Assembly: GCA_964247135.1 (NCBI GenBank)
Contig: CAXTTL010000170.1
Span: forward strand, 1-10,599
Direction of reading: 5' to 3'
Source of the DNA: an uncultured Deinococcales bacterium
Lineage (GTDB): Bacteria; Deinococcota; Deinococci; Deinococcales; JAAFIG01
Length of the DNA: 10,599 bases
Shown here: positions 157-10,598 of the stretch, one piece after another
Layout of the letters: each line of letters opens with the position of its first letter
Position numbering within the stretch: position 1 is the first letter of the stretch
Notes under the pieces: model-generated
What the model was told of the DNA's origin: nothing
Database searches by the model: none
The model's input: the letters and a program-made list of their open reading frames with translations, nothing else
Made by a program: the position numbers and the translations under genes

Positions 157-910
157 GTGAACCCGCAGATTCTCGAGCAACCCAGCACCAGTGAACTTGA
201 AGTGTTTTTGCAAGAACACCTTCGCAGGAAAAAGTTTGTCCAAATCGCTGGCACTTGCGAGGTCGTTTACGTCGGACGCGCCCGCCAGCCTGACCGAAGC
301 CGGCGATTACGTCGTGATGGTGAAAAGCGACGGCAGCATTCAGGTTCACGGCGCCAGGGGGGTCAAACCCATCAACTGGCAACCGCGCACCGACGACCTG
401 CGGGTGACCCGAGACGAAGATGACCGCCTGATGCTGCTCGCCGAGCGTTTCAAACCCAACGAACTGGTGCAGGTCACGTTCAGAAAAGTTTTTATGGCGT
501 TTTCTCTCGAGCTTCGGGATGAAAAAATGTTCCAACTGCACGGTTCAGAAGCCCAAATGCACGAGGCACTGGCGCAAAACCCAGGCAGCATCGAACCAGG
601 TTTGCGCGTCCTCGAGCGCGAACTGCTGGTCGGGGTGGGCGGCATTGACCTGTACGCGATGGACAACCTTGGGCGCTACGTGATCGTCGAGGTCAAACGC
701 GCCAAAGCCACCCAAGAAGCCGTGCATCAACTCGAGCGCTACGTCAATGCCGTGCGCGAACAAGTGCCAGGTGAAGTGCGTGGGATTCTGGCGGCGCCCA
801 GCATTTCAACCCCAGCCCGCACCGTGCTCGAGAAATTGGGACTCGAGTTTCTCGAGTTGAACGCACTGCCAGAGGAGAACAAACCAGTGCCGCAGATGGC
901 GTTGTTTTAA
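157..910 (+). pseudogene. nucS: Endonuclease NucS/EndoMS (mismatch-specific), about 250 aa if repaired; +1 frameshift at the CCC run 281-283 (true lesion or sequencing error)
   Basis: ORF 157..423 supplies the N-terminus (…IAGTCEVVYVGRA). ORF 191..910 supplies the rest (ASLTEAGDYVVMVKSDGSIQVH…KPINWQP…GSEAQM…GGIDLYAMD…VIVEVKR…AVHQLERYV…RGILAAP). Removing one C at 281-283 joins them as YVGRA-ASL, the typical NucS C-V-Y-GR motif followed by the RecB-like D…EVK/QLxRY nuclease motifs. Confidence 0.88.
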
Positions 911-971
911 AGCTCGAGCGTCAAAGTCATTTTTGCTCGGGTCACAAATAAATTTTTAGTTTTGAAAACCC

Positions 972-1646
972 TTACTGCATCCGCAGCACATAACCGACGT
1001 TGCGAATCGTTTGCAACAAACGCGGTTCGCCATTTTCCTCGAGTTTTTGGCGCAACTGCGAGACAAAAACTTCGACCACGTTGTCGTCACCAAAAAATTC
1101 TTCGCCCCAGACCCGATCCAGCAAGTATTTTTTGCTCATCACACGTTCGGGTTGCTCGAGAAATTCTTGAAGCAACCTGAATTCGCGGCTGGTCAGGGTC
1201 AGAACCCTGGTGCCGCGTTTGGCGACGAATGCGCCGACATCGAGCACGATGTCGTCAAAGCGCAGTAAATTCGAGATGGTTCCGTTTGATCGGCGTTCGA
1301 TGGCGCGAATCCGTGCCATCAGAACGTCAAAGTGAACGGGTTTGATCACGTAATCGTCTGCGCCGGTGTTCAAGCCTTCCATTTGGGCTTCCGGTTCGTC
1401 GTTGGCGGTCAGCATGATCACGGGCAGTTGTACGTCTGCGGCGCGGAGGCGGCGCAGGACTTCAAAACCGTCGATGCCTGGCATCATCAAATCCAAGATC
1501 ATCAGGTGCGGTGCGCGGTCCAGGGCGGCGCGTAAGCCGGTTTCGCCACTTTCGGCGGTTTCGACTTGAAAACCTTCAAAGGACAAGCCGCGTTTCAAAA
1601 AGTTACGAACGCTGACGTCATCGTCGATCACCAAAATGCGTTTCAC
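972..1646 (-). CDS. OmpR/PhoB-family response regulator (REC plus winged helix), MprA-like; no adjacent co-oriented kinase
   Basis: Receiver motifs ILVIDDD, ILDLMMPGIDG, LTA and GADDYVIKP; winged-helix motifs LTSREFRLL, NVVEVFVSQLRQKLE and IQTIRNVGY-type C-terminus (LQTIRNVGYVLR). Confidence 0.95.
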   Translation of the reverse strand: MKRILVIDDDVSVRNFLKRGLSFEGFQVETAESGETGLRAALDRAPHLMILDLMMPGIDGFEVLRRLRAADVQLPVIMLTANDEPEAQMEGLNTGADDYVIKPVHFDVLMARIRAIERRSNGTISNLLRFDDIVLDVGAFVAKRGTRVLTLTSREFRLLQEFLEQPERVMSKKYLLDRVWGEEFFGDDNVVEVFVSQLRQKLEENGEPRLLQTIRNVGYVLRMQ

Positions 1647-1653
1647 AGTCTTT

Positions 1654-1659
1654 AATTTA
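1654..1659 (-). promoter_or_regulatory. Putative -10 element (TAAATT) for a leaderless response-regulator transcript
   Basis: TANNNT hexamer 7 nt upstream of GTG 1646, with no Shine-Dalgarno sequence. Confidence 0.55.
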
Positions 1660-1682
1660 CAACCAATGGCTACAGATTTTGG

Positions 1683-1710
1683 TTGAAGCCAAACTGAGGG
1701 CGAGCTGAGG
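1683..1710 (-). promoter_or_regulatory. Triple direct-repeat operator (CCTCAG-N5-CCTCAG-N5-CTTCAA), OmpR/MprA-box-like
   Basis: 11-bp periodicity. Shares 16 identical bp (CCTCAGTTTGGCTTCA) with the box at 2693-2708. The middle repeat begins 39 bp upstream of the -10 element. Confidence 0.65.
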
Positions 1711-1734
1711 ATGCCCTTGCAGTGTCAAAAAATG

Positions 1735-1791
1735 GCGCTAGAGCTTGAGCTGGAATGCGCTAGAGCTTGAGCTGGAATCTCGAGCCGGAAT
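1735..1791. repeat. 22-bp perfect tandem duplication plus a degenerate partial third copy
   Basis: GCGCTAGAGCTTGAGCTGGAAT at 1735-1756 and 1757-1778, followed by CTCGAGCCGGAAT at 1779-1791 (11/13 match to the 3' part of the unit). Confidence 0.9.
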
Positions 1792-1800
1792 ACAATGTCA

Positions 1801-1819
1801 AAATTCAGGCGAAATTCAG
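1801..1819 (+). promoter_or_regulatory. Direct-repeat operator upstream of dps (AAATTCAG-N3-AAATTCAG), with candidate -10 TAAACT at 1852-1857
   Basis: 8-bp repeats with 11-bp period and the same YTCAG core as the other boxes. Confidence 0.5.
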
Positions 1820-1906
1820 TTGATGCCAAGCTTGTCCACAAGTCTCGATTCTAAACTTTGGTTTGTTTAAGCTTTGAAAATTCGCATCATCCTTGGAGGC
1901 AAGACC

Positions 1907-2479
1907 ATGTCAAAGAAAACAGACGTGAAACCAATCCTTAAAAAGACGGAAGCCAAACCAAAAGCAAGCGCCGATGCCAAAAAAGTGATGTTTGAAAACA
2001 GCATCGACATGAAAGTCCAAACCCGAGAGACGATGATTGGCATTTTGAATGCTCGACTGGCGGATTCTAGCGATTTGTACTCGCAGCTCAAACAGGCGCA
2101 TTGGAATGTCAAGGGAATGCAGTTCATTGCCATTCACGAACTGTTCGACGAGGTCGCCTCAGAGGTTTTGGGTTTTGTCGATGATATTGCCGAACGCGCC
2201 ACGGAGTTGGGCGGTTATGTTTACGGCACGGTGCGCTCCGCCGCCCAAACCTCGAATTTGCCCGAGTACGATTTGGAGGCGGTCAGTTGCCAGGAGCATT
2301 TGGAGGCGGTTGTGGCTCGGGTGGCGGCGTTTGGGGCGCTGGTGCGTCAGAACATCAAGGACACCCAGGATGATCTTGATACCGCCGATTTGTTTACCGA
2401 GATCAGCCGCGCGATTGACAAGAAGCTCTGGTTTCTCGAGGCGCATTTGTTGGATTCACCAGCTAAGAGGTCAACATGA
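1907..2479 (+). CDS. dps: Dps family DNA-protecting ferritin-like protein with a Lys-rich N-terminal tail (190 aa)
   Basis: Ferroxidase-centre motifs KQAHWNVKG…IHELFDE, DDIAERATELGG, D-DTADLFTE and DKKLWFLEAH. GGAGG at 1895-1899 favours ATG 1907 over TTG 1874. Confidence 0.95.
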   Translation: MSKKTDVKPILKKTEAKPKASADAKKVMFENSIDMKVQTRETMIGILNARLADSSDLYSQLKQAHWNVKGMQFIAIHELFDEVASEVLGFVDDIAERATELGGYVYGTVRSAAQTSNLPEYDLEAVSCQEHLEAVVARVAAFGALVRQNIKDTQDDLDTADLFTEISRAIDKKLWFLEAHLLDSPAKRST

Positions 2480-2658
2480 ATCCGGTAAAAGCCCCCAAAC
2501 CGCCAGCCGCTTCGAATCAAGCCGATGCCTTGCACGAGGAACTCAAACCCAAAGACGCGCCAACGCCCAAAGCCAGCCGTGGTCTTGGCGCCAAAGAAGA
2601 ACAGATGAATGAAAATCAAGTTTCAAACGAGAAAGGCAGCGATTCGCCTGGCGGTTGA
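2476..2658 (+). CDS. Small hydrophilic, probably disordered hypothetical protein (60 aa), translationally coupled to dps
   Basis: ATGA start/stop overlap with dps, GAGG upstream, and a P/A/K/E/S-rich sequence with no hydrophobic core. Confidence 0.6.
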   Translation: MNPVKAPKPPAASNQADALHEELKPKDAPTPKASRGLGAKEEQMNENQVSNEKGSDSPGG

Positions 2659-2681
2659 GTCAGACTTTGGTTTGGGTGGCG

Positions 2682-2709
2682 CCTCAGTTTGTCCTCAGTT
2701 TGGCTTCAG
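2682..2709 (+). promoter_or_regulatory. Triple direct-repeat operator (CCTCAG-N5-CCTCAG-N5-CTTCAG) upstream of the kinase operon; -10 candidates GATAAT/TAATCT at 2732-2739
   Basis: 11-bp periodic repeats at 2682, 2693 and 2704, with nearly the same spacing to the -10 element as the box at 1683-1710. Confidence 0.65.
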
Positions 2710-2744
2710 GTTTTTTTGAGGCTGAATTGGGGATAATCTTGCTC

Positions 2745-4232
2745 ATGATGTTGGCGCCGCTCAAAAACAATTCGTTGTTGGCGTGGTTTTACCGCGCAAA
2801 ACTCAGCACCAAGCTCGATCTGTTGGTGGTTATGATTTTGATTCCTTCGCTTTTTATGACCGCCACAATGGTTTTTGTGGCGGCTCGTTTGCAAGAAAAA
2901 TCTGCTTTGACCGCCTCGTACCGTATTGAACTCTTAAACGCCGCAGCCTTGCAAACGGGTTTGTTGAATGTCGAAACTGGGTTGCGCGGCTATGCCCTGA
3001 GCGCCCAACCAGGTTTTCTTGATCCGTACAAATTGGGGCTTGAACAGATCAAGACCGCGCTCGAGAATTTGAGTGAAAACGCACTTTTTCTGTCAGAGTT
3101 GAACGATGTGAAAGCCTCAGTCGACAATTACCTCGCCTGGGTGAAAAGCCAGTTGCAACTGGGTGATCTGAACGCGCAAATTTTTAAGTCTGTGGTGGCA
3201 CCGGCTGGTAAGGTTCGGTTTGATCGTCTTCGGGTGCAGTTGACCGACCTTTACGATAAATCTCAAAAAGCGTTTTTGAATGGCAGAAAAGAGGTGACTG
3301 GTTTGATCGGTTGGGTTCAAATTCTGCCCTGGACCTTGTTTGCCCTGATCGCCATCGCTGGCTTGCTGGTGCGCCGAGGCTTGCAGGTGTTTGTCTTGCA
3401 TCCACTCAAATTGATTGAACAGACCACCGAGGCGCAACTGATCGGTGATGAGGATTTAAGAACCAAAATTACCAGTCCCGACGAAATCGGACGGCTTGCC
3501 CTCAGTCTCAACTCCTCTTACGATGCCGTGCGAACCAGAACCGAAGCCCTGAGGCGCTCCAACGCCGACCTCGAGCAGTTCGCTTATGTGGCAACGCACG
3601 ACCTTCAAGAACCGCTGCGCATGATCTCGAGTTACACCCAGCTTCTCGAGAAACGCTACAAGGGTCAACTTGACAGCCGCGCCGATCAGTACATTCATTA
3701 CGCCGTGGACGGTGCAAACCGAATGCAGCGCCTGATTCAGGATTTGCTGGCGTTTTCGAGGTTGAACCGGCAAGCCCCAAAGATGCAGGCAGTCGATTCT
3801 GGCGCTGTGCTGCAAAGTGCCCTGCGTTCGCTCGAGATGGCGACGGAGGGGGCAACAGTGAATGTCATTGGCACCATGCCTTTGGTCATGGCTGACGAGG
3901 GTCAGCTCGAGCAGGTGTTTACCAACCTGATTGGCAATGCCCTAAAATTTCGTCGTCCGAATACGGCGCACAGGGTCGAAATTACCAGCGAGCCGGAGTC
4001 CAACGAGGAGTGGCGTTTTGCAATCAGTGACAACGGAATTGGAATTGAACAGGCTTATTTCGACCGAATTTTTACGATTTTTCAGCGCCTCAACACCAGG
4101 GAAGTCTTTGCGGGCAGCGGTATCGGCTTGAGCATTGTCAAAAGAATTATCGAGTATCACGGTGGTCGCATTTGGCTGAGCAGTCAACCCGATCAGGGCA
4201 CCACTTTTTACTTCACCCTGAAAGCAGCCTAA
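2745..4232 (+). CDS. Membrane sensor histidine kinase: TM-CHASE3-TM-HAMP-HisKA-HATPase (bacteriophytochrome/Cph1-type kinase core)
   Basis: CHASE3 motif LLNVETGLRGYALS…FLDPY…GKVRFDRLR; two hydrophobic segments; HAMP motif PLK…DEIGRLA; H-box LEQFAYVATHDLQEPLRMI; NLIGNALKF, DNGIGI, FTIFQRL and GSGIGL. Start placed at ATG 2745 (or 2748) because the upstream TTG 2655 extension covers promoter sequence. Confidence 0.92.
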   Translation: MMLAPLKNNSLLAWFYRAKLSTKLDLLVVMILIPSLFMTATMVFVAARLQEKSALTASYRIELLNAAALQTGLLNVETGLRGYALSAQPGFLDPYKLGLEQIKTALENLSENALFLSELNDVKASVDNYLAWVKSQLQLGDLNAQIFKSVVAPAGKVRFDRLRVQLTDLYDKSQKAFLNGRKEVTGLIGWVQILPWTLFALIAIAGLLVRRGLQVFVLHPLKLIEQTTEAQLIGDEDLRTKITSPDEIGRLALSLNSSYDAVRTRTEALRRSNADLEQFAYVATHDLQEPLRMISSYTQLLEKRYKGQLDSRADQYIHYAVDGANRMQRLIQDLLAFSRLNRQAPKMQAVDSGAVLQSALRSLEMATEGATVNVIGTMPLVMADEGQLEQVFTNLIGNALKFRRPNTAHRVEITSEPESNEEWRFAISDNGIGIEQAYFDRIFTIFQRLNTREVFAGSGIGLSIVKRIIEYHGGRIWLSSQPDQGTTFYFTLKAA

Positions 4233-4244
4233 AGGACCAAAACC

Positions 4245-4679
4245 ATGCCAAACAGTGGAACAAAAATGATCGAAATTTTGTTGGTCGAAGACAACCCTGG
4301 CGATGTTCAACTCACCAGAGAGGCGTTTTTGGAGGGCAAAATTCGCAACAACATGACCGTCATGCGCGACGGCGTGGAGGCTTTTGAATACCTTCAAACC
4401 CCTGGTGTTGCCCGTCCAGACATCATTTTGCTCGACCTGAACTTGCCGCGCATGGGTGGTTTGGAGGTGCTCGAGAAAATCAAAGACGATCTGGAATTGC
4501 GGGTGATTCCGGTGGTGATTTTGACCACCTCGCAGGACGAGGCAGACATTGCCAAATCTTACCGCTCGCACGCCAATTGCTATATCGCCAAACCGGTGGA
4601 TTTTGAAAAATTTATGCAGGTGGTTCGCAGTTTGGAAGATTTTTGGCTGACCGTGGTCAGGCTGCCGTCTCATTCATGA
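4245..4679 (+). CDS. Single-domain response regulator of the Rcp1/bacteriophytochrome-RR type
   Basis: ILLVEDNPGD, PDIILLDLNLP, LTTS, ANCYIAKP and the C-terminal FWLTVVRLP. AAGGA RBS upstream; lies immediately after a Cph1-type kinase. Confidence 0.93.
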   Translation: MPNSGTKMIEILLVEDNPGDVQLTREAFLEGKIRNNMTVMRDGVEAFEYLQTPGVARPDIILLDLNLPRMGGLEVLEKIKDDLELRVIPVVILTTSQDEADIAKSYRSHANCYIAKPVDFEKFMQVVRSLEDFWLTVVRLPSHS

Positions 4680-6202
4680 AGGCGGTTTACGAGCGTACCC
4701 ATATGAGAATTCTTTTGGTCGAGGACAACCCGGGCGATGCCTTGCTGGTTCGGGAGTATCTTTCCGAAGCGGACCCCAGTGTCGAATTGATCCACAAAAC
4801 CAGCCTGCAAGATTCTGCCGGCATTCTTGGGGAAAACAACATCGACGCCGTTTTGTTGGACCTCTCCTTGCCCGACACCCAAGGACTCGAGACGGTTTAC
4901 AAAGCCAGGGAATTGGCGCCGCATCATCCGATTGTGGTGCTCAGCGGCATCAGCGACCGCGAGACCGCCGTATTAGCATTGCAAAACGGTGCCCAAGACT
5001 TTTTGGTCAAAGGGCAGGGCAATGGCGACGACATTCTGCGGGCGTTAAAGTACGCCGTCGAACGCGCAGAATTGCTGCAAAAACTCGAGCAGAGCAACAC
5101 CCAACTCGAGATCAGTTCGGGTTTGGCACTTCATGCCGCGCGAATGGTGGCTTGGGACTGGTGCATCGAAGATGACACGTTAACCATGTCCAAAAATGCC
5201 AGCGAGGTGCTGGGCGCGAACGCCACCTGGGCAACCTTTCAGCTACGCAACAACGACATTCACCGCGAGGACCTTACAGCCTATCTCGAGGTGATTGACC
5301 GCGCCCAGCAAAACAAAGAGGCGTACCAAGCCAGTTTCAGAATTTGGAATCAAAGCACCCGCGAAAACATTTGGGTCGAAGAGTACGGCATGGCAAGGTT
5401 GGACACCAAAGGCAAAGTGATTGACATCAATGGGGTCACCCAAGACATCACCGAACGTAAAATAGCCGACATGACCCTGCGCCGCATCATTGAAGCCCAA
5501 AAGCGTTTTGTGGGCGATGCCGCCCACGAACTTCGCGCCCCGTTGACCAGCATTCAAGGCAACCTCGAGTTGCTGCGGCGCTACCCGAACATGCCGCCGG
5601 TTGACCGCAAGGAGACCACCGAAGATGCCTACCGCGAGGCGGCACGCTTGGGGCGGTTGGTCAACGACCTGTTGGCGCTGGCTCGGGGCGACGCGGGCGA
5701 GGGCTTACGCCTCGAGCCGATCCATTTGCATGAGCTGGTGGGTGAAAGTTTACGTCATGCCCAACACCTGACCAAAAACCATCATTTTGAACTGCTGAGT
5801 CTCAAGCATTGCACCGTCGAAGCCGACCATGACCGTATCCAACAATTAATGCTGATCTTGCTCGAGAATGCCATCAAGTACACGCCAGACGGCGGCTGGA
5901 TTCGGGTTTCGCTCGATTGCGATCCCCAGTGGGCAGAAATTCGGGTGCAAGACAGCGGCATCGGTATTTCTGAGGAGCACCTGACCCAGGTGTTCGAGCG
6001 TTTTTACCGCGTTGACAAGGGACGCCCGAGGGGCACCGACCCTGGCGGCACAGGTTTGGGCTTGCCCATTGCCAAATGGATTGTCGCCCAACACGGCGGC
6101 GAGATTTTTCTCGAGAGTGAAGTTGGCGTTGGGACGCTGGCGATTGTGCGTTTAAGAATTTCTGGCTCGAGTGAGCATCTGGGTCAAATTGAAGCTGTTT
6201 GA
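4676..6202 (+). CDS. Cytoplasmic hybrid kinase: REC-PAS-HisKA-HATPase
   Basis: N-terminal receiver (ILLVEDNPGD, LLDLSLPD, GAQDFLVK); PAS region (WDW…IHRED…GVTQDITERK); H-box RFVGDAAHELRAPLT; LLENAIKY, DSGIGI, FERFYR and GGTGLGL. Start is either ATG 4676 (ATGA overlap) or ATG 4703. Confidence 0.92.
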   Translation: MKAVYERTHMRILLVEDNPGDALLVREYLSEADPSVELIHKTSLQDSAGILGENNIDAVLLDLSLPDTQGLETVYKARELAPHHPIVVLSGISDRETAVLALQNGAQDFLVKGQGNGDDILRALKYAVERAELLQKLEQSNTQLEISSGLALHAARMVAWDWCIEDDTLTMSKNASEVLGANATWATFQLRNNDIHREDLTAYLEVIDRAQQNKEAYQASFRIWNQSTRENIWVEEYGMARLDTKGKVIDINGVTQDITERKIADMTLRRIIEAQKRFVGDAAHELRAPLTSIQGNLELLRRYPNMPPVDRKETTEDAYREAARLGRLVNDLLALARGDAGEGLRLEPIHLHELVGESLRHAQHLTKNHHFELLSLKHCTVEADHDRIQQLMLILLENAIKYTPDGGWIRVSLDCDPQWAEIRVQDSGIGISEEHLTQVFERFYRVDKGRPRGTDPGGTGLGLPIAKWIVAQHGGEIFLESEVGVGTLAIVRLRISGSSEHLGQIEAV

Positions 6203-6225
6203 CAAAATTGAAGACGATTTCTGAT

Positions 6226-6255
6226 TCGACAGAAGACTTTTGTTTCCTGTAGAAT
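6226..6255 (+). promoter_or_regulatory. Candidate sigma70-type promoter (TCGACA-N18-TAGAAT) for the third kinase
   Basis: 5/6 matches to both consensus hexamers in an AT-rich intergenic region. Confidence 0.4.
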
Positions 6256-6309
6256 CAAAATCCAGGCAAATTCGGTATTACTTACTCATTTTGTCCAGGC
6301 AGGTCGTGC

Positions 6310-8295
6310 ATGAAATTTTCTGAAACACAATTGCTCCAAGCCCTGCTCTCAACACCAAACGGTGTTGCCGTGATCGATCAAGATTTAAAATACGTTTACG
6401 TCAACGCTGGACTTGCCGCCATGAACGGCAGCGACCCTGCAAGCTTTATCGGCAAAACCGTGTGCGAAATCGTGCCGCAGCTTGCCGATAAGCTCGAACC
6501 GGCGCTCTTGGAAGTGTTCAAAACCGGTCAACCGATTCAAAACCTCGAGGTTGAAGGCATCGGACCAGACCGAGGACGGGTTTGGCTCGAGCATTTGCAA
6601 CCCATTTTTGATCAATCCTCTGAAGTCATACGCGTTGCAGTCATGATCGAAGAGATCACCGCGCGGCGACATTCCGAAGAACGTTACCGCACACTTTTTG
6701 TCAATTCCAACCAAGGATTTTGCATCATCGAAATTTTATACGATAACGCAAATAACGCTGTTGACTACTGCTTTCTCGAGACCAATCTGGCTTTTGAAAA
6801 CCACACTGGATTGTACAACGCCGTCGGTTTTTGCGCCCGCGCCCTTGTGCCAGGTTTAGAGCAATACTGGATTGACACCTATGCCAAAGTGGCACAAACC
6901 GGTGAGACGTACCGCTTTGAACAAGGCTCGGAGGCAATGGGTCGAATCTTCGAGGTCGAGGCAATGCGGGTTGGTGGGGTTCAGAGCCGTCAGGTGGCAG
7001 TTATTTTTACCGACATCACCGACCGTCGCCGTTCGGAAACCACGTTGCGTTTGGCTGCCCAACGCGACGAATACCGTTTGCTGCTCGCCGATACCTTGCG
7101 CAACCTCGAGAATCCAGAGTCGGTGCAAATAGAGGCTGCCGCCCTGCTCTCGAAAAACTTAAATGCAGACCGTGTCGTTTACTCTGAAATCGAAGCCGAC
7201 GGTGAACACTTTGTGGTTCACCGAGACGATGGACGGATCATACCCAAAGTCACCGGACGTTTTAAATTGCAAGACTACGGCGTAGCGATCATTAACGATT
7301 TGAAATTGGGGAAAATCGTGGTCATCGAAAATACCCAAACCGATCCACGTTTCAACCAAGCGCAACGCCAAGCCTACCTTGAGGTTGGCGTCTCGGCTAA
7401 CCTCAGCGTACCACTCATCAAAAGCGGCAAATTCGAAGCCATCTTGACCGTTCAAGAATCCAACCCTCGAGCCTGGACGCAAAACGAAATTTTACTGGTC
7501 TCAGACACAGCCGAACGCACCTGGGTAGATGTCGAACGCGCCAGGTTGACCCGTCTGCTTTTGGCACGCGACCTCAAATTGACCAACCTCAACGAAGCCC
7601 AACGCCGTTTTGTCTCAGACGCCGCCCACGAACTTCGAGCACCCTTGACCGCCATCCGTGGCAACCTCGAGTTGTTGTTGCGCTACAAAGATGTTTCCAA
7701 AGAAGATCGCCTCGAGATGCTGACCGACGCCGAACGGGAGGCGGCACGGTTATCGCGTCTCATCACCGACCTGCTCGCCGTGGCACGGGGTGATGCCGCA
7801 CAACACAGCGAATTTACGCCGCTGCGTTTGGACAAACTGATCAAAGAGAGCTTAAAGGTGACCCAGCACCTGAGCAGCCAACACCAGCTCGAGTCTGACA
7901 AATTGCCCCCAGTGAGGGTCATGGGCAACAATGACCGCCTCAAACAATTGTTGCTGGTGCTGCTCGAGAATGCCGTCAAATACTCCGCAGGCGGCAAGAC
8001 GATTCGGGTGTCCCTGGAGATCGACCGGCAAAATGCTGAAGATTCAAAAGCGGTCATCAAAATCTCCGATCAAGGACCTGGCATTGCCCCCGAAGACCTC
8101 AAACACGTCTTCGAGCGTTTCTACCGCGTGGACCGTTCACGCACCCCAGGGCGCGACCCTGGCGGAACGGGGCTGGGATTGTCAATCGCCAAACTGATCG
8201 CCGAAGCCCACGGCGGTTCGGTCTGGCTCGAGAGTGAACTGGGAAGCGGAACAACCGCAATCATCAGCCTGCCAGTCAACAAGGGCAGCGATTGA
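6310..8295 (+). CDS. Cytoplasmic sensor kinase: PAS-PAS-GAF-HisKA-HATPase
   Basis: PAS1 (YVYVN…IGKT…EITARR); PAS2 (GFCIIE…[13 protein letters not shown]…FTDITDRR); GAF (LNADRV…SVPLIKSG…PRAWT--EI); H-box [35 protein letters not shown] and GGTGLGL. No evident transmembrane segment. Confidence 0.93.
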   Translation: [661 protein letters not shown]

Positions 8296-8323
8296 AAGAA
8301 GCTCGGGTTTCTTGGTTCATTTG

Positions 8324-8371
8324 CGGGTTAACAAAAACAATGATTTACGGGGTGACAAAAACAACGATGGT
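8324..8371. repeat. Degenerate 24-bp tandem duplication
   Basis: CGGGTTAACAAAAACAATGATTTA followed by CGGGGTGACAAAAACAACGATGGT. Confidence 0.7.
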
Positions 8372-8410
8372 CTTCATCCCTGTCTTTCAAGTCGGATGAA
8401 ACCATCATTG
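8355..8410 (-). terminator. Probable intrinsic terminator between convergent genes
   Basis: Imperfect inverted repeat CAACGATGGTCTTCATCC (8362-8379) / GGATGAAACCATCATTG (8394-8410), followed on the - strand by TTTTTGT. Confidence 0.6.
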
Positions 8411-8446
8411 GTGACGCGTAAACATAAATAGATTATTCAAGATTCA

Positions 8447-8480
8447 AATTAACGAACCACCCGAATTAACGAACCACCCG
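8447..8480. repeat. 17-bp perfect tandem duplication of the gene 3' end including the stop codon
   Basis: AATTAACGAACCACCCG at 8447-8463 and 8464-8480, encoding RVVR* on the - strand. Confidence 0.92.
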
Positions 8481-8732
8481 CAGCGCCCGCAGCAAACCAA
8501 TTAAAATGGCAGCACCGACCACGCCCCAGAAAATACCAGCCACCGAAAAAGCGCCCGCAACGTGAGCGCCGCTCAAACCAATCACGTCGCCGAGCAACCA
8601 GCGTCCGAGCGCCGCTCCGCCAATACCAATGATAATGCTGGTAATTAGACCTTGTTCAGCATCGCTTTTCATGAAAATGCTTGCCAACCAACCAATTAAG
8701 GCACCGGCGACAATGACGACAATCCAATCCAT
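8466..8732 (-). CDS. GlsB/YeaQ/YmgE family stress-response membrane protein (transglycosylase-associated), 88 aa
   Basis: GALIGWLAS…IIIGIGGAALG…GVVGAAILI pattern, three hydrophobic segments and a GAGG RBS. Confidence 0.9.
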   Translation of the reverse strand: MDWIVVIVAGALIGWLASIFMKSDAEQGLITSIIIGIGGAALGRWLLGDVIGLSGAHVAGAFSVAGIFWGVVGAAILIGLLRALRVVR

Positions 8733-8794
8733 AAAAACCTCAATTCTTGGTTTGATTCAAAGCTGTCTGAGATGACTGGAAACTCGAGCCAAAT

Positions 8795-8842
8795 AATTTA
8801 GCGAATAAACCTGAGCGAATTTAGCGAATAAACCTGAGCGAA
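8795..8842. repeat. 23-bp perfect tandem duplication of the gene 3' end including the stop codon
   Basis: AATTTAGCGAATAAACCTGAGCG at 8795-8817 and 8818-8840 (plus AA), encoding (S)LRFIR* on the - strand. Confidence 0.92.
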
Positions 8843-9087
8843 CGCAACAAGAAAATCACGATCAAAGCGCCCAGAACGCCCCAGACGATGCCGTAAAGTG
8901 AAAACGAACCGGCAGCGCTGGCACTTCCAATATGAAGAACATTGCTAAACAACCAACGACCAACCGAAGCGCCCGCAATGCCAGTGACAATGTTGGCAAG
9001 CGCCCCCTGCTGATTTTCAGTGTCGGCAACAATACTAGCCAGCCAGCCAATCAAGGCGCCAACCAAAATAACAAAGACCCAATCCAT
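8821..9087 (-). CDS. GlsB/YeaQ/YmgE family stress-response membrane protein, second paralog, 88 aa
   Basis: MDWVFVILVGALIGWLAS…NIVTGIAGASVG…GVLGALIVI. The AAGGA RBS and alignment with the paralog put the start at ATG 9087. Confidence 0.9.
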   Translation of the reverse strand: MDWVFVILVGALIGWLASIVADTENQQGALANIVTGIAGASVGRWLFSNVLHIGSASAAGSFSLYGIVWGVLGALIVIFLLRSLRFIR

Positions 9088-9108
9088 GACAGTCCTTTCC
9101 GTTAACAT

Positions 9109-9330
9109 TTATAAAAGATGCTTTTCCGAATAACGCGGAATCGAAAGCTTATTGACCGAAGGACGGTTGCTACGCTCGAGATAATCTTGTCGGTGGGCTT
9201 CAACGCAATCACACCACTGCTCAATCATTTTGACTCCGCGTTGGACCGCTTCGTATGGGGTTTTCAAACCTGTCCCCTCGAGAAATTCGGCTTGGGCGCG
9301 ACGCATGTAGTTTGACTCACTTCTTTTCAT
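9109..9330 (-). CDS. Hypothetical small protein (73 aa)
   Basis: Strong RBS (AAGGAGG) just upstream of ATG 9330; fills the gap between co-oriented genes; no family recognised. Confidence 0.55.
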   Translation of the reverse strand: MKRSESNYMRRAQAEFLEGTGLKTPYEAVQRGVKMIEQWCDCVEAHRQDYLERSNRPSVNKLSIPRYSEKHLL

Positions 9331-9350
9331 TGAAACCCTCCTTTTTTGAT

Positions 9351-9381
9351 GGATTCAAGTGGTTTAAGATCACTTGAATCC
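9351..9381. other. Inverted repeat with 11-bp arms and 9-nt spacer: hairpin or operator
   Basis: GGATTCAAGTG (9351-9361) / CACTTGAATCC (9371-9381); no U-tract downstream on the - strand. Confidence 0.65.
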
Positions 9382-9407
9382 GCTATTCGAGCCTGAAAGA
9401 CTTAAAT

Positions 9408-10001
9408 TTAGTAGGTGATGGTGATTCCGCCCAAAGATTGGGTGATCAAATCATCGCTGCGTCCAATGGTCACCACGGTAGTGGTGTCTTTGTTGACATC
9501 GGTGATCAGGTTCCAACCGGCTTTGACCATTTTGCCTGTCGTCCATTCGGCATCGGTCTTGGAGTACAACAAAAAGCGATTGCCGCTGGCGGTTTTGCCA
9601 TTGGTGCTGTCTGCCAGAGCCTTGTCTTTTTCACCATTGTTGCCCGTGGCGTCAAGGTCGTACTTGCCGTCACCGGTCTTGTCCTCGTAAACCACAAATT
9701 TGTAAAAGCGTTGGGTGTCGCTGCCAAGGTCAATGTTTGGCACCAAAAATCCTGTGAAACCACCAGTACCACCGTTGATGGCAATCGACGTGGCAAAGGC
9801 AGCCGTTTCAGATTGTTCCTGACTTGCGCCGCCTGGCGTGGTGAAACGCACCAAAGCCAAACCGTAATTGACGGCGGCTGGTTGAGTGCCCTCGACCGAA
9901 CCTGCGAACGAAGGACCACCGTTGATGGCGTTGCCGAACAAACTGCAACCCGAGGCGGCGACTGATATCAAACCGAGTGCCAATAATGTTGTGATTTTCA
10001 T
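9408..10001 (-). CDS. Hypothetical lipoprotein (197 aa)
   Basis: Signal peptide MKITTLLALGLISVAASG|C with lipobox cysteine; AAGGAG RBS; DKTGDGKYD resembles a Dx[DN]xDG calcium-binding loop. Confidence 0.85.
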   Translation of the reverse strand: MKITTLLALGLISVAASGCSLFGNAINGGPSFAGSVEGTQPAAVNYGLALVRFTTPGGASQEQSETAAFATSIAINGGTGGFTGFLVPNIDLGSDTQRFYKFVVYEDKTGDGKYDLDATGNNGEKDKALADSTNGKTASGNRFLLYSKTDAEWTTGKMVKAGWNLITDVNKDTTTVVTIGRSDDLITQSLGGITITY

Positions 10002-10077
10002 GGTGTTCTCCTTTTATTTGGGGCGCTCTTTGCGCTGAACCTATCTTTCAATGCCGAGCTTTGCCACGGCTGCCAGC

Positions 10078-10097
10078 AAACTGAGTAGCGGCTGAAG
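10078..10097 (-). promoter_or_regulatory. Direct-repeat operator candidate (CTTCAG-N5-ACTCAGTTT) upstream of the lipoprotein gene
   Basis: YTCAG cores 11 bp apart; contains CTCAGTTTG as in the boxes at 1683-1710 and 2682-2709. Confidence 0.45.
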
Positions 10098-10131
10098 ACT
10101 TGATGTATAGTGTGAAGTATTGTTTGGCACG

Positions 10132-10170
10132 ACAAAAAACAAAGGCTCGGGTTTTAAAACCCGAGCCTTT
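10132..10170 (-). terminator. Intrinsic terminator downstream of the AI-2E transporter gene
   Basis: Perfect 30-bp palindrome AAAGGCTCGGGTTTTAAAACCCGAGCCTTT (10141-10170), followed on the - strand by GTTTTTTGT. Confidence 0.8.
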
Positions 10171-10226
10171 ACGGGCAGTTTTCAAGTAACATCTCATGGC
10201 TTTAAAATCTTGAAGCCATACCAGAT

Positions 10227-10598
10227 TCAAGTTGAAACCGACTCGGTTGAAATTGGCGTGGGAATTTCCAGCACCTTGATGCTCGGTTCGCTCGATCTTG
10301 TTGGACCGACCGGTTGTTGAATTGCCTCAATCGGGGCTTCAGGCGGTCCCTCGAGCGCCTCCTCTGGCGGCGGAACATTCAGAACACCCGCAATGTCTTC
10401 CTCGCTGACACCCTCGCCGCCAACGCTGGGCAAGTACAACTCTTCGTAAATGGCTTTGATGATGATGGTCATCGGAACCGCCAAAAACGTGCCGACAAAA
10501 CCCATCAACGACCCAAAGACCGAGACGCTGACCAGCACCGAAAGTGGTTGCAATTGCGTGGTGCGCCTGAAGACCATCGGACTTAAAAAATAACCATC
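10227..10598 (-). CDS. AI-2E (PerM/YhhT) family transporter, C-terminal part; begins beyond the right window edge
   Basis: DGYFLSPMVFRRTTQLQPLSVLVSVSVFGSLMGFVGTFLAVP matches the AI-2E C-terminal signature (P-hh-----LHP--h------GG-L-G--G-hLAVP), followed by an acidic Pro-rich tail. The frame is open to the window edge. Confidence 0.88.
   Translation of the reverse strand, partial: DGYFLSPMVFRRTTQLQPLSVLVSVSVFGSLMGFVGTFLAVPMTIIIKAIYEELYLPSVGGEGVSEEDIAGVLNVPPPEEALEGPPEAPIEAIQQPVGPTRSSEPSIKVLEIPTPISTESVST

Follow-up and report, generated by a model that had tools for sequence, protein, structure and literature searches.

In an uncultured family of Deinococcales, the hexamer CTCGAG forms a genuine highly iterated palindrome (HIP) that spans the lineage, and it is a feature of the DNA itself rather than a by-product of what the DNA encodes. 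The word recurs throughout the stretch of 10,599 nucleotides analysed here (contig C170 of genome G000, hereafter the window), throughout the rest of that genome, and in all relatives of the same family that we surveyed. To our knowledge, highly iterated palindromes have so far come only from cyanobacteria, where the question of their origin and function is about 30 years old and unsettled. Two proposals are standing: selection for a role in the nucleoid and methylation-directed repair. Below we argue that a single force acting at the level of DNA maintains CTCGAG in this lineage, and we ask what kind of agent might exert it.

A preliminary description of the window, made from its sequence, put the number of CTCGAG copies at about 42 and their excess at roughly 15-fold. 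The copy number and the individual positions were right: there are exactly 42 sites, where 200 dinucleotide-preserving shuffles yield 2.04 on average (standard deviation 1.41, maximum 7) and not one of the 200 reaches the observed count. The overabundance therefore stands, but its size by this measure is closer to 20-fold. The mirror word, GAGCTC, has zero copies. As had also been described, most sites (33 of 42) read CTC-GAG and encode Leu-Glu, while copies also occur in other frames (at 3626, 6166 and 7466, encoding Ile-Ser-Ser, Gly-Ser-Ser and Pro-Arg-Ala) and six lie between genes (at 172, 913, 1779, 8783, 9175 and 9277). When synonymous codons are shuffled within the 11 genes of the window, a procedure that keeps both the proteins and their codon usage, 1000 shuffles give 5.26 ± 2.08 sites (maximum 12) against the 36 observed. 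The variants CTCGGG and CCCGAG, said to recur about 12 times, are indeed present six times each, and their recurrence is explained by several one-off variants being perfect sites in relatives: this is the case for CTCGGG at 2316, CCCGAG at 2022 and 6025, TTCGAG at 3755 and CTTGAG at 7378.

The G000 assembly (5.09 Mb in 386 contigs, 84% complete) contains 33,925 CTCGAG sites, or one per 150 bp; no other hexamer is even half as common. The observed-to-expected ratio (O/E) is 25, 35 and 14 under Markov models of order 0, 1 and 2, respectively. Under the maximal-order model (order 4) it falls to 1.24, because the CTCGAG sites themselves carry the pentamers on which that expectation is built; 87.6% of all TCGAG in the genome have a C in front. 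A Markov null had been put forward as a check on the excess, and the excess is thus upheld at the lower orders and nearly vanishes at the highest. None of the 386 contigs has fewer than 2.6 sites per kb, and the median is 6.8. The contig that forms the window is CTCGAG-poor by this standard, with 3.96 per kb, the 11th lowest of the 386.

Might such abundance simply follow from base composition, from codon-pair preferences, or from the avoidance of other palindromes or of other ways to spell Leu-Glu? The prevalence of Leu-Glu, which accounts for 33 of the 42 sites in the window and for 63% of coding sites genome-wide, speaks for an explanation of this kind. To assess it across the genome we rely on 4,166 genes, called by a procedure that combines open reading frames with codon usage and covers 82.4% of the sequence. 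The procedure is rough and misses foreign-looking genes, so that DNA described here as intergenic or non-coding takes in a number of genes that escaped calling, most of them foreign-looking. In coding DNA there are 27,944 CTCGAG sites (6.66 per kb), split by frame into 17,559, 3,984 and 6,401, where the first figure refers to the Leu-Glu frame. Non-coding DNA, at 46% G+C, is equally dense, with 6,003 sites in 904 kb (6.64 per kb) against an expected 163-433. Shuffling synonymous codons gene by gene (4,161 of the 4,166 genes; five were dropped for N or length) produces 3,845 sites where 27,874 are observed, a 7-fold shortfall. By frame, the shuffle predicts 3,019, 266 and 561 sites compared with 17,513, 3,967 and 6,394 in the genome, so that the two frames that do not encode Leu-Glu are enriched 15-fold and 11-fold. 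Codon choice itself bends to the word: CTC makes up 15% of leucine codons if the next residue is not glutamate and 83% if it is, and GAG supplies only 32% of glutamate codons outside CTCGAG.

Expressed as log-odds relative to motif-free codon usage, the excess amounts to 4.23 in the Leu-Glu frame, where 77.8% of 22,502 Leu-Glu pairs are spelled CTCGAG, and to 4.01 and 3.42 in the other two frames, where the word occupies 41.6% of 9,543 and 49.7% of 12,870 eligible tripeptides. Once the motif is masked in the background, O/E reaches 58.9 outside coding DNA and 56.4 within it. Given that the excess is similar in all frames and in non-coding DNA, these figures show one DNA-level force, about the same size everywhere (~30- to 70-fold), which acts regardless of translation. 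Codon, dipeptide or composition bias is therefore ruled out as the cause by the shuffle, the frames and the non-coding DNA alike, in keeping with the suspicion voiced in the preliminary description that codon bias alone might not suffice. By the terms set there, the excess would have been refuted had it disappeared under a protein-preserving null or been missing from intergenic DNA and the frames that do not encode Leu-Glu; it survives on both counts. The avoidance of more than 20 other palindromes in G000 might still be thought to favour CTCGAG by default; however, the genomes G042 and G008 are dense in CTCGAG yet retain 1,197 and 568 copies of GAGCTC. We regard the chance that CTCGAG is a by-product of any of these biases as negligible.

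The same can be said, with equal assurance, of the idea that the word is carried by a dispersed repeat or small mobile element akin to repetitive extragenic palindromes (REP) or miniature inverted-repeat transposable elements (MITE). The flanks of CTCGAG are weak, with G at -1 and C at +6 in 39% of sites and a flat profile beyond ±1; since they carry so little information, the unit is the hexamer and not part of something longer. Palindromic 8-mers comprise 21% of sites when 27.5% would be predicted from the flank frequencies, and are hence rarer than expected. Gaps between sites are near-geometric (mean 148, coefficient of variation 0.96), although gaps longer than 1 kb are too frequent (85 against 39 expected), and their sole periodicity is 3 bp. 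No two sites are spaced by 6, as GAGCTC would then arise between them. Finally, sites are found within conserved codons at orthologous positions. A dispersed repeat as the source is thus ruled out, above all by the flat flank profile.

If a force maintains CTCGAG, its effects should be visible in comparisons between close relatives. We aligned 391 kb of G005, a genome of the same genus, to G000 and kept 125 of 182 high-scoring segment pairs, leaving 305 kb at 85.2% identity. In the Leu-Glu frame, 995 of 1,201 G000 sites (83%) are kept in G005, compared with 46% of all hexamers. The corresponding figures for the other two coding frames are 172 of 254 (68%) and 313 of 410 (76%), again against 46%, and in non-coding DNA 167 of 224 sites (75%) are kept, against 43% of all hexamers. 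The window tells the same story: five relatives from the genus keep 28/36, 22/31, 24/32, 33/41 and 7/8 of the alignable sites, against 30-49% of all hexamers. Existing CTCGAG sites are thus shown to be protected from loss. Public sequencing runs offered no access to variants within populations: one run contained 8% of the sampled words and gave a few short window contigs with no usable variants.

The sites that do differ reveal what is being maintained. There are 748 sites at which just one of G000 and G005 carries CTCGAG, and in 387 of them the partner is one base off. Folded by the symmetry of the word, these one-off differences fall 132/127/128 on half-site positions 1, 2 and 3. Such an even spread means that all six bases matter equally and that the unit is the whole hexamer, neither TCGA nor CYCGRG, both of which had been entertained as possible units in the preliminary description. 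The changes are mostly transitions (C>T 111 at position 1, T>C 116 at position 2, C>T 82 plus C>G 41 at position 3). Note that C>T changes are not concentrated at the CpG in the centre of the word, where 82 are found; the other two positions have 111 and 116 transitions.

Words in the neighbourhood of CTCGAG are not drained to supply it. For two-off variants O/E is as expected (1.06 and 1.01), and in non-coding DNA it lies between 0.85 and 1.36 for one-offs by transversion; CTTGAG stands at 1.2-1.8. Transition one-offs are raised in non-coding DNA (CCCGAG 3.07, TTCGAG 2.20, CTTGAG 1.84); among one-off variants it is only the transition-reachable ones that are raised, and CCCGAG/CTCGGG the most. 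This modest excess could be a mutational halo around the word, made up of sites that have decayed or are just arising, or reflect a weak residual advantage of CYCGRG.

The force reaches into the proteome. Leu-Glu is the most over-represented dipeptide of G000 (O/E 2.37), and Ser-Ser, spelled by the word in another frame, stands at 1.63; similar values are found in G005 (2.29-2.71 and 1.63-1.79). In G158, a motif-free relative with the same G+C content of which 400 kb were sampled, Leu-Glu and Ser-Ser stand at 1.33 and 0.98, and 8.6% of Leu-Glu pairs are CTCGAG. The commonest one-off partners in the Leu-Glu frame of the comparison between G000 and G005 are CTCGAA (38), TTCGAG (30), CTTGAG (28) and CTCAAG (23), of which TTCGAG and CTCAAG encode Phe-Glu and Leu-Lys, so that amino-acid replacements go along with the gain and loss of sites. 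Likewise, a Trueperaceae homologue of NucS, the product of the first complete gene in the window, shows Leu-Asp in place of two of the six Leu-Glu pairs of the G000 protein (6 of 11 loci were used in this comparison; L194-L198 were dropped). These replacements, Leu-Asp, Phe-Glu and Leu-Lys to Leu-Glu, show the force to be strong enough to fix amino-acid changes. The case thereby demonstrates how far a preference for a DNA word can reach: Leu-Glu is nearly doubled relative to the motif-free relative.

How widespread is the trait? We surveyed 364 genomes of the phylum; one of them, G327, is flagged as unpublished, and nothing here rests on it. All 19 genomes of the window's family carry 4.3-6.8 CTCGAG per kb. 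A second, neighbouring family includes G156 (8.6 per kb), G157 (7.0) and G042 (3.6), and yet G158, which is assigned to the same genus as G156 and G157, has 0.3, a more than 20-fold contrast within one genus. Two further families include many genera at 1.4-3.5 per kb, with 5-10 times as much CTCGAG as GAGCTC. In the large genus g7 the density is 0.01-0.36 per kb, and in genus g9 CTCGAG and GAGCTC are about equally frequent. The trait is hence extreme in the window's family, graded across the phylum (0.01-8.6 per kb), and may differ sharply between close relatives. Together with its presence throughout the genome, its independence of frame, its equal density in non-coding DNA and the retention of its sites, this bears out the earlier suggestion that the lineage has a HIP-like motif of its own.

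The exceptional G158 (2.3 Mb; positions 1-400000 of its contig C1, loci L205-L224) shows no excess of CTCGAG, no other hyper-abundant palindrome and almost no avoidance of palindromes, and no DNA methylase was detected in it among five classes searched. It should be useful as a motif-free baseline genome. A bias of this kind is also seen in some virus and provirus records in IMG/VR: CTCGAG outnumbers GAGCTC by 100 to 1 in L092 (G365, 36.9 kb), by 98 to 5 in L094 (G368, 33.4 kb), and by 18 to 1 and 37 to 0 in L075 and L103 (G366, G367). These four records have 66-70% G+C, and their word bias is that of Deinococcota genomes of intermediate density. They come from a viral scan by a three-site pattern in which 80 of at least 126 stretches were examined; among the matches listed, the viral stretches are mostly high-G+C records rich in both CTCGAG and GAGCTC. 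L092 and L094 had no match when searched against named phages.

We looked for the agent among genes that might recognise or repair the word. The XhoI-family nuclease (PF04555) is found in 0 of the 19 family genomes; elsewhere in the order it is present in 3 of 22, with one gene broken beside an intact methylase. Two methylases are linked to XhoI in the order. The beta-class enzyme (from L008) has no orthologue in the family, its best match in G000 being 26% identical. The gamma-class enzyme (from L009/L039) has orthologues in 17 of the 364 genomes of the phylum, whose carriers are not the dense ones, and none in the family (a single 27% match), in genus g23 or in genus g19. Vsr is likewise found in 0 of the 19 family genomes, and no TaqI-like methylase was found in G000. 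The XhoI nuclease, the XhoI-linked methylases and Vsr are accordingly rejected as the agent, missing as they are from the family genomes searched. NucS/EndoMS, which is patchy in the phylum (170 of 364 genomes), does not track the trait: it is carried by 12 of the 19 family genomes but by only 1 of 8 from genus g5 and by none of the 3 from g23, and it turns up in 55 of the 111 genomes of g7, where CTCGAG is scarce. The Vsr-like DUF559 nucleases can be discarded on similar grounds, being present in 15 of 19 family genomes (E<=1e-15, multi-copy) but found in none of the three g23 genomes, nor in the single one from g19, and in 61 of the 111 from g7. G000 has three intact small DUF559 genes and a broken one (contigs C142, C61, C252 and C290), none adjoining a recognisable methylase, and relatives in the genus have up to 9 copies.

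At least 12 DNA methylase domains were found in G000, and the seven small ones all adjoin restriction nucleases. An M.PvuII-like methylase is paired with a PvuII nuclease on C36 (CAGCTG, 15 copies in G000), an M.HaeIII-like methylase with an NgoPII nuclease on C14 (GGCC-containing palindromes, 1-125 copies), a C5 methylase with an Eco29kI nuclease on C178 (CCGCGG, 11 copies), a PF01555 methylase with an MvaI/BcnI nuclease on C189, a D12 methylase with a SacI-like nuclease on C320 (GAGCTC, 0 copies), a second PF01555 methylase with a weakly NotI-like nuclease on C207, and a methylase of 466 residues with a type II nuclease of 271 residues on C4. Six of these nucleases belong to named families or are close to solved enzymes for other words. 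The seventh, that of the C4 pair, has at least 8,000 homologues, none informatively named. The remaining domains belong to one type I HsdM, two MmeI-like enzymes and one methylase-SNF2 fusion; no orphan methylase was seen in this 84% complete assembly. The fusion (L047, C112:1668-6167; 1,499 residues, with an N6-adenine methylase domain and an SNF2-type helicase) is a poor candidate, as it is sporadic, with full-length relatives in 3 of 19 family genomes, and lies on a low-density contig. With 3.5 CTCGAG per kb, C112 has half the usual density and is therefore probably part of a mobile element; the gene for the MvaI/BcnI-type methylase, at 40% G+C, has no CTCGAG site at all.

The D12-class adenine methylase on C320 might have been taken for a conserved orphan (83% identity in G011, 74.5% in G157, with different neighbour genes in each). 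However, at C320:1061-2985 (L038:320-2244) its gene runs by 4 bases into the next one, for a protein of 364 residues that matches the SacI family (PF09566, E 8e-7), so that the methylase fits the missing GAGCTC and not CTCGAG. GAGCTC has zero copies in the 5.09 Mb of G000, and 1,197 in G042, in which no D12 methylase was detected. More than 20 six-base palindromes are nearly absent from G000, among them GGGCCC (1), CGGCCG (3), AGGCCT (4), CGTACG (5), GGATCC (7), CCGCGG (11), CAGCTG (15) and GCATGC (17). Four of the seven type II pairs have named target words among the depleted ones; the systems are far fewer than the avoided words. In a test set of five genomes, those dense in CTCGAG do not share any one class of small methylase: C5 was not found in G008, PF01555 in neither G011 nor G042, and D12 not in G042. 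Gamma-class methylase domains are present in 4 of 4 CTCGAG-rich genomes tested.

What, then, maintains the word? The reading we favour, at a probability of roughly 55%, combines a hexamer-specific factor, a candidate protein, with an advantage attached to each site. CTCGAG would be the recognition site of a protein with the six-base specificity of a restriction enzyme, and every perfect site would carry a small and equal advantage, be it as part of a genome-wide mark of 'self' or of nucleoid organisation, or through repair biased towards the bound site. Binding by a chromosome-organising protein had also been raised as a possibility in the preliminary description. New sites would, on our reading, become fixed and old ones be kept, in something like a balance of mutation and selection in which the advantage belongs to the exact six-base word only. 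From the equal weight on all six bases and the indifference to flanks we infer recognition of the restriction type, and the observation that neighbour words stand at or above expectation fits an advantage of the perfect site, not a one-way, position-specific correction of the very-short-patch kind. More tentatively, and at less than even odds, we suggest that the Deinococcota may possess an undescribed system targeting this hexamer, outside recognisable restriction or methylase families and independent of the cyanobacterial HIP, that marks or organises 'self' DNA or biases repair.

Several observations sit uneasily with the idea of a site-bound advantage. Among the candidates tested (XhoI-type nuclease, XhoI-linked methylases, Vsr, DUF559 and NucS) no protein that recognises CTCGAG was identified. 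The excess of transition one-offs in non-coding DNA (CCCGAG 3.07, TTCGAG 2.20, CTTGAG 1.84) departs from a rule by which only the perfect site counts. The near-geometric gaps, with their surplus beyond 1 kb, show no trace of selection for even spacing; long-range periodicity has been an argument for a nucleoid role of HIP1, the cyanobacterial motif. Moreover, with sites as close as one per 150 bp, a further one should bring less benefit, and yet the force per site is strong, which argues for a local bias in repair over a function that depends on density. Selection and biased repair predict the same equilibrium patterns. High saturation leans towards a local process, and the failure to find a repair candidate leans the opposite way.

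One rival is the model that Elhai proposed for HIP1, in which an orphan methyltransferase would mark CTCGAG and methyl-dependent mismatch or very-short-patch-type repair would restore the word. It has precedent, in that cyanobacterial HIP words are accompanied by cognate orphan methylases according to the accessible text of PMC4390886. Here, G158 lacks both the word and any detected methylase of five classes, a single comparison and the only point in favour of a methylation link as such; it can be added that gamma-class domains occur in all four CTCGAG-rich genomes tested, that the G before and C after the word in 39% of sites recall Elhai's GmeC idea, and that the C4 pair has no assigned target word. 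Against this stand the distributions of the genes: XhoI nuclease and Vsr at 0 of 19 in the family, beta and gamma XhoI-linked methylases without an orthologue there and gamma carriers that are not dense, DUF559 missing from g23 (0/3) and g19 (0/1) yet present in 61 of 111 genomes of CTCGAG-poor g7, no small type II methylase class common to dense genomes, and a nuclease beside each of the seven small methylases of G000. Nor does the turnover of sites carry the expected imprint, as C>T changes do not pile up at the CpG (82, compared with 111 and 116 elsewhere in the word) and no neighbour word is drained. Because the assembly is only 84% complete, absences of genes from G000 itself are unproven. 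The preliminary description had suggested methylation-directed repair or conversion at CTCGAG, TCGA or CYCGRG and a search for XhoI- and TaqI-like methylation genes; gene content lends that suggestion no support, the search having turned up no XhoI-type nuclease, no orthologue of an XhoI-linked methylase and no TaqI-like methylase, and we consider this mechanism unlikely.

Less probable again is a molecular drive in which competence machinery or a recombination nuclease prefers DNA with CTCGAG, so that alleles carrying the word spread. Relatives in the Deinococcota are naturally transformable, the palindrome reads alike on both strands, and the word behaves in several ways as a driven sequence might: it is lineage-specific, makes use of every frame, alters proteins and thins out on foreign-looking DNA (3.5 per kb on C112, none in the MvaI/BcnI-type methylase gene). 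However, known uptake sequences have 9-12 bases, are not palindromic and occur about once per kb. A six-base word discriminates little, and at one copy per 150 bp every fragment already has many; the advantage of further copies should vanish, yet 78% of Leu-Glu is saturated. A hexamer-specific factor with a per-site advantage remains the reading that we think best accommodates the pattern.

The sites of the window, taken individually, illustrate the turnover described above. In what follows, a site is called kept where aligned relatives of the same genus also have CTCGAG. An intergenic site (172..177, kept 3/3) precedes the first complete gene (191-910, + strand), which encodes a NucS/EndoMS mismatch endonuclease (PF01939 and PF21003); the GTG start called at 191 is open to doubt, since alignment with relatives begins only near residue 32. 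The gene contains six Leu-Glu sites, of which those at 506..511, 611..616, 731..736, 827..832 and 842..847 are each kept 3/3, and that at 851..856 is private to G000 (0/3, relatives having TGCGAG or TGTGAG). Directly past the stop codon lies another intergenic site (913..918, kept 3/3).

From 972 to 8295 follows a dense signalling cluster composed of an OmpR-type regulator, a Dps-like ferritin, a CHASE3 kinase, a lone receiver, a receiver-PAS hybrid kinase and a PAS-GAF kinase. The response-regulator gene (972-1646, - strand) has Leu-Glu sites at 1038..1043 and 1155..1160, both kept 3/3, and the intergenic site at 1779..1784 falls in an alignment gap in 2/2 relatives. The Dps/ferritin-like gene (1874-2479, +) contributes one Leu-Glu site (2435..2440, kept 4/4). 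In the CHASE3 histidine-kinase gene (2655-4232, +), Leu-Glu sites at 3060..3065, 3570..3575 and 3831..3836 are kept 4/4, as is the Ile-Ser-Ser site at 3626..3631 (read xxC-TCG-AGx), with those at 3906..3911 and 3645..3650, also Leu-Glu, kept 3/4 and 1/4. The Leu-Glu site of the receiver-domain gene (4245-4679, +), at 4470..4475, is kept 2/4, the others having CTTGAG. This open reading frame overlaps the next (4643-6202, +) by 37 bases, so that the TTG start at 4643 may be wrong.

That next gene, for the hybrid histidine kinase, has Leu-Glu sites kept 4/4 at 4886..4891, 5084..5089, 5564..5569, 5711..5716, 5861..5866 and 6110..6115, further ones kept 3/4 (5105..5110) and 2/4 (5285..5290), and a Gly-Ser-Ser site (6166..6171, xxC-TCG-AGx) kept 0/3. 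The PAS-GAF histidine-kinase gene (6310-8295, +) ranges from Leu-Glu sites kept 4/4 (7666..7671, 7711..7716, 7963..7968) or 2/2 (8227..8232), through others kept 3/4 (6586..6591, 6775..6780), 2/4 (7105..7110) and 1/4 (6544..6549), to one private to G000 (7888..7893, 0/4); its Pro-Arg-Ala site (7466..7471, xCT-CGA-Gxx) is kept 1/4. Beyond the cluster there are intergenic sites between two small Transgly_assoc genes (8783..8788, kept 2/3, the third relative having CTCGGG) and at 9175..9180 and 9277..9282 (both kept 3/3), and a last Leu-Glu site at the end of an AI-2E transporter gene (10350..10355 in 10227-10598, -; kept 0/2).

New here are the quantification of a single force, the even spread of deviations, and a gradient across a phylum that comes with a motif-free baseline genome. 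New, too, are the exclusion of six candidate agents and the assignment of the small methylases of G000 to ordinary restriction systems. The graded series of genomes (0.01-8.6 per kb), along with the sharp contrast within a genus, constitutes an independent system in which to seek the cause of highly iterated palindromes; if an undescribed hexamer-specific system does exist, the more than 20-fold contrast of G156 and G157 with G158 could let comparative genomics find the gene. On a practical level, XhoI would cut such genomes to pieces of about 150 bp, and CTCGAG density is a sensitive marker for binning contigs of the lineage and for spotting foreign DNA.

It remains to place CTCGAG among known systems. 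Restriction-modification systems of the XhoI/PaeR7I type recognise the same word and occur in the same order, at L007-L010, where the nuclease sits beside a beta or gamma methylase; they differ in that the window's family has the nuclease in 0 of 19 genomes and no orthologue of the linked methylases. Restriction systems normally deplete their own word, as seen here for CAGCTG, GGCC, CCGCGG and GAGCTC, whereas CTCGAG is enriched at least 25-fold. One preprint lists CTCGAG, in its accessible part, among methylated motifs of other phyla, and a search of full-text literature, supplements excluded, found no printed report of CTCGAG hyper-abundance in Deinococcota.

Very-short-patch repair is a known route by which site-specific repair shifts word frequencies genome-wide: Dcm and Vsr of E. 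coli enrich CCWGG and deplete its T-containing neighbours. With CTCGAG, by comparison, Vsr is found in 0 of 19 genomes, no neighbour is depleted, and the effect exceeds that of Dcm and Vsr by orders of magnitude. DNA uptake sequences (DUS) of Neisseria and uptake signal sequences (USS) of Pasteurellaceae resemble CTCGAG in being lineage-specific, spread by drive, present in all frames and able to alter peptides. They are longer, non-palindromic and roughly 7-fold sparser than CTCGAG. REP and MITE repeats differ in that CTCGAG has no conserved sequence beyond its core.

The closest parallel is with cyanobacterial HIP1 (GCGATCGC) and the alternate HIPs GGCGCC, GCsGC and rCCGGy, as far as these are covered by the accessible text of Elhai (2015, PMC4390886) and of Xu, Lawrence and Durand (2018, PMC5861425). 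HIP1 proper is not present, with only 47 copies of CGATCG in G000. For HIP1, the accessible text of PMC4390886 gives 300-2,700 copies per Mb and an O/E of 55-228; CTCGAG is a word of six bases in the Deinococcota that is denser (6,660 per Mb) at a lower O/E (25-59). One-base deviations of HIP1 are biased to the outer bases, and a periodic distribution at 10-90 kb is named as a HIP feature, in the accessible parts of PMC4390886 and PMC5861425; those of CTCGAG are even (132/127/128). A further difference is that no cognate methylase for CTCGAG was found in the family, one restriction-modification pair (C4) being left without an assigned word and the genome being 84% complete. The likenesses are nonetheless extensive. 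Each is a short palindrome, rich in G+C, that is hyper-abundant across the whole genome, within coding DNA and outside it; each is confined to certain lineages and can be absent from individual relatives, one of which has a small genome; and each is conserved between genomes beyond the background (68-83% for CTCGAG against 43-46% for all hexamers). CTCGAG exceeds its Markov expectation, occurs in all frames and in non-coding DNA, is conserved, and is shared by a clade with exceptions, as HIPs are. It presents a second case of a highly iterated palindrome, in another phylum, with another word, and at a higher density than HIP1.

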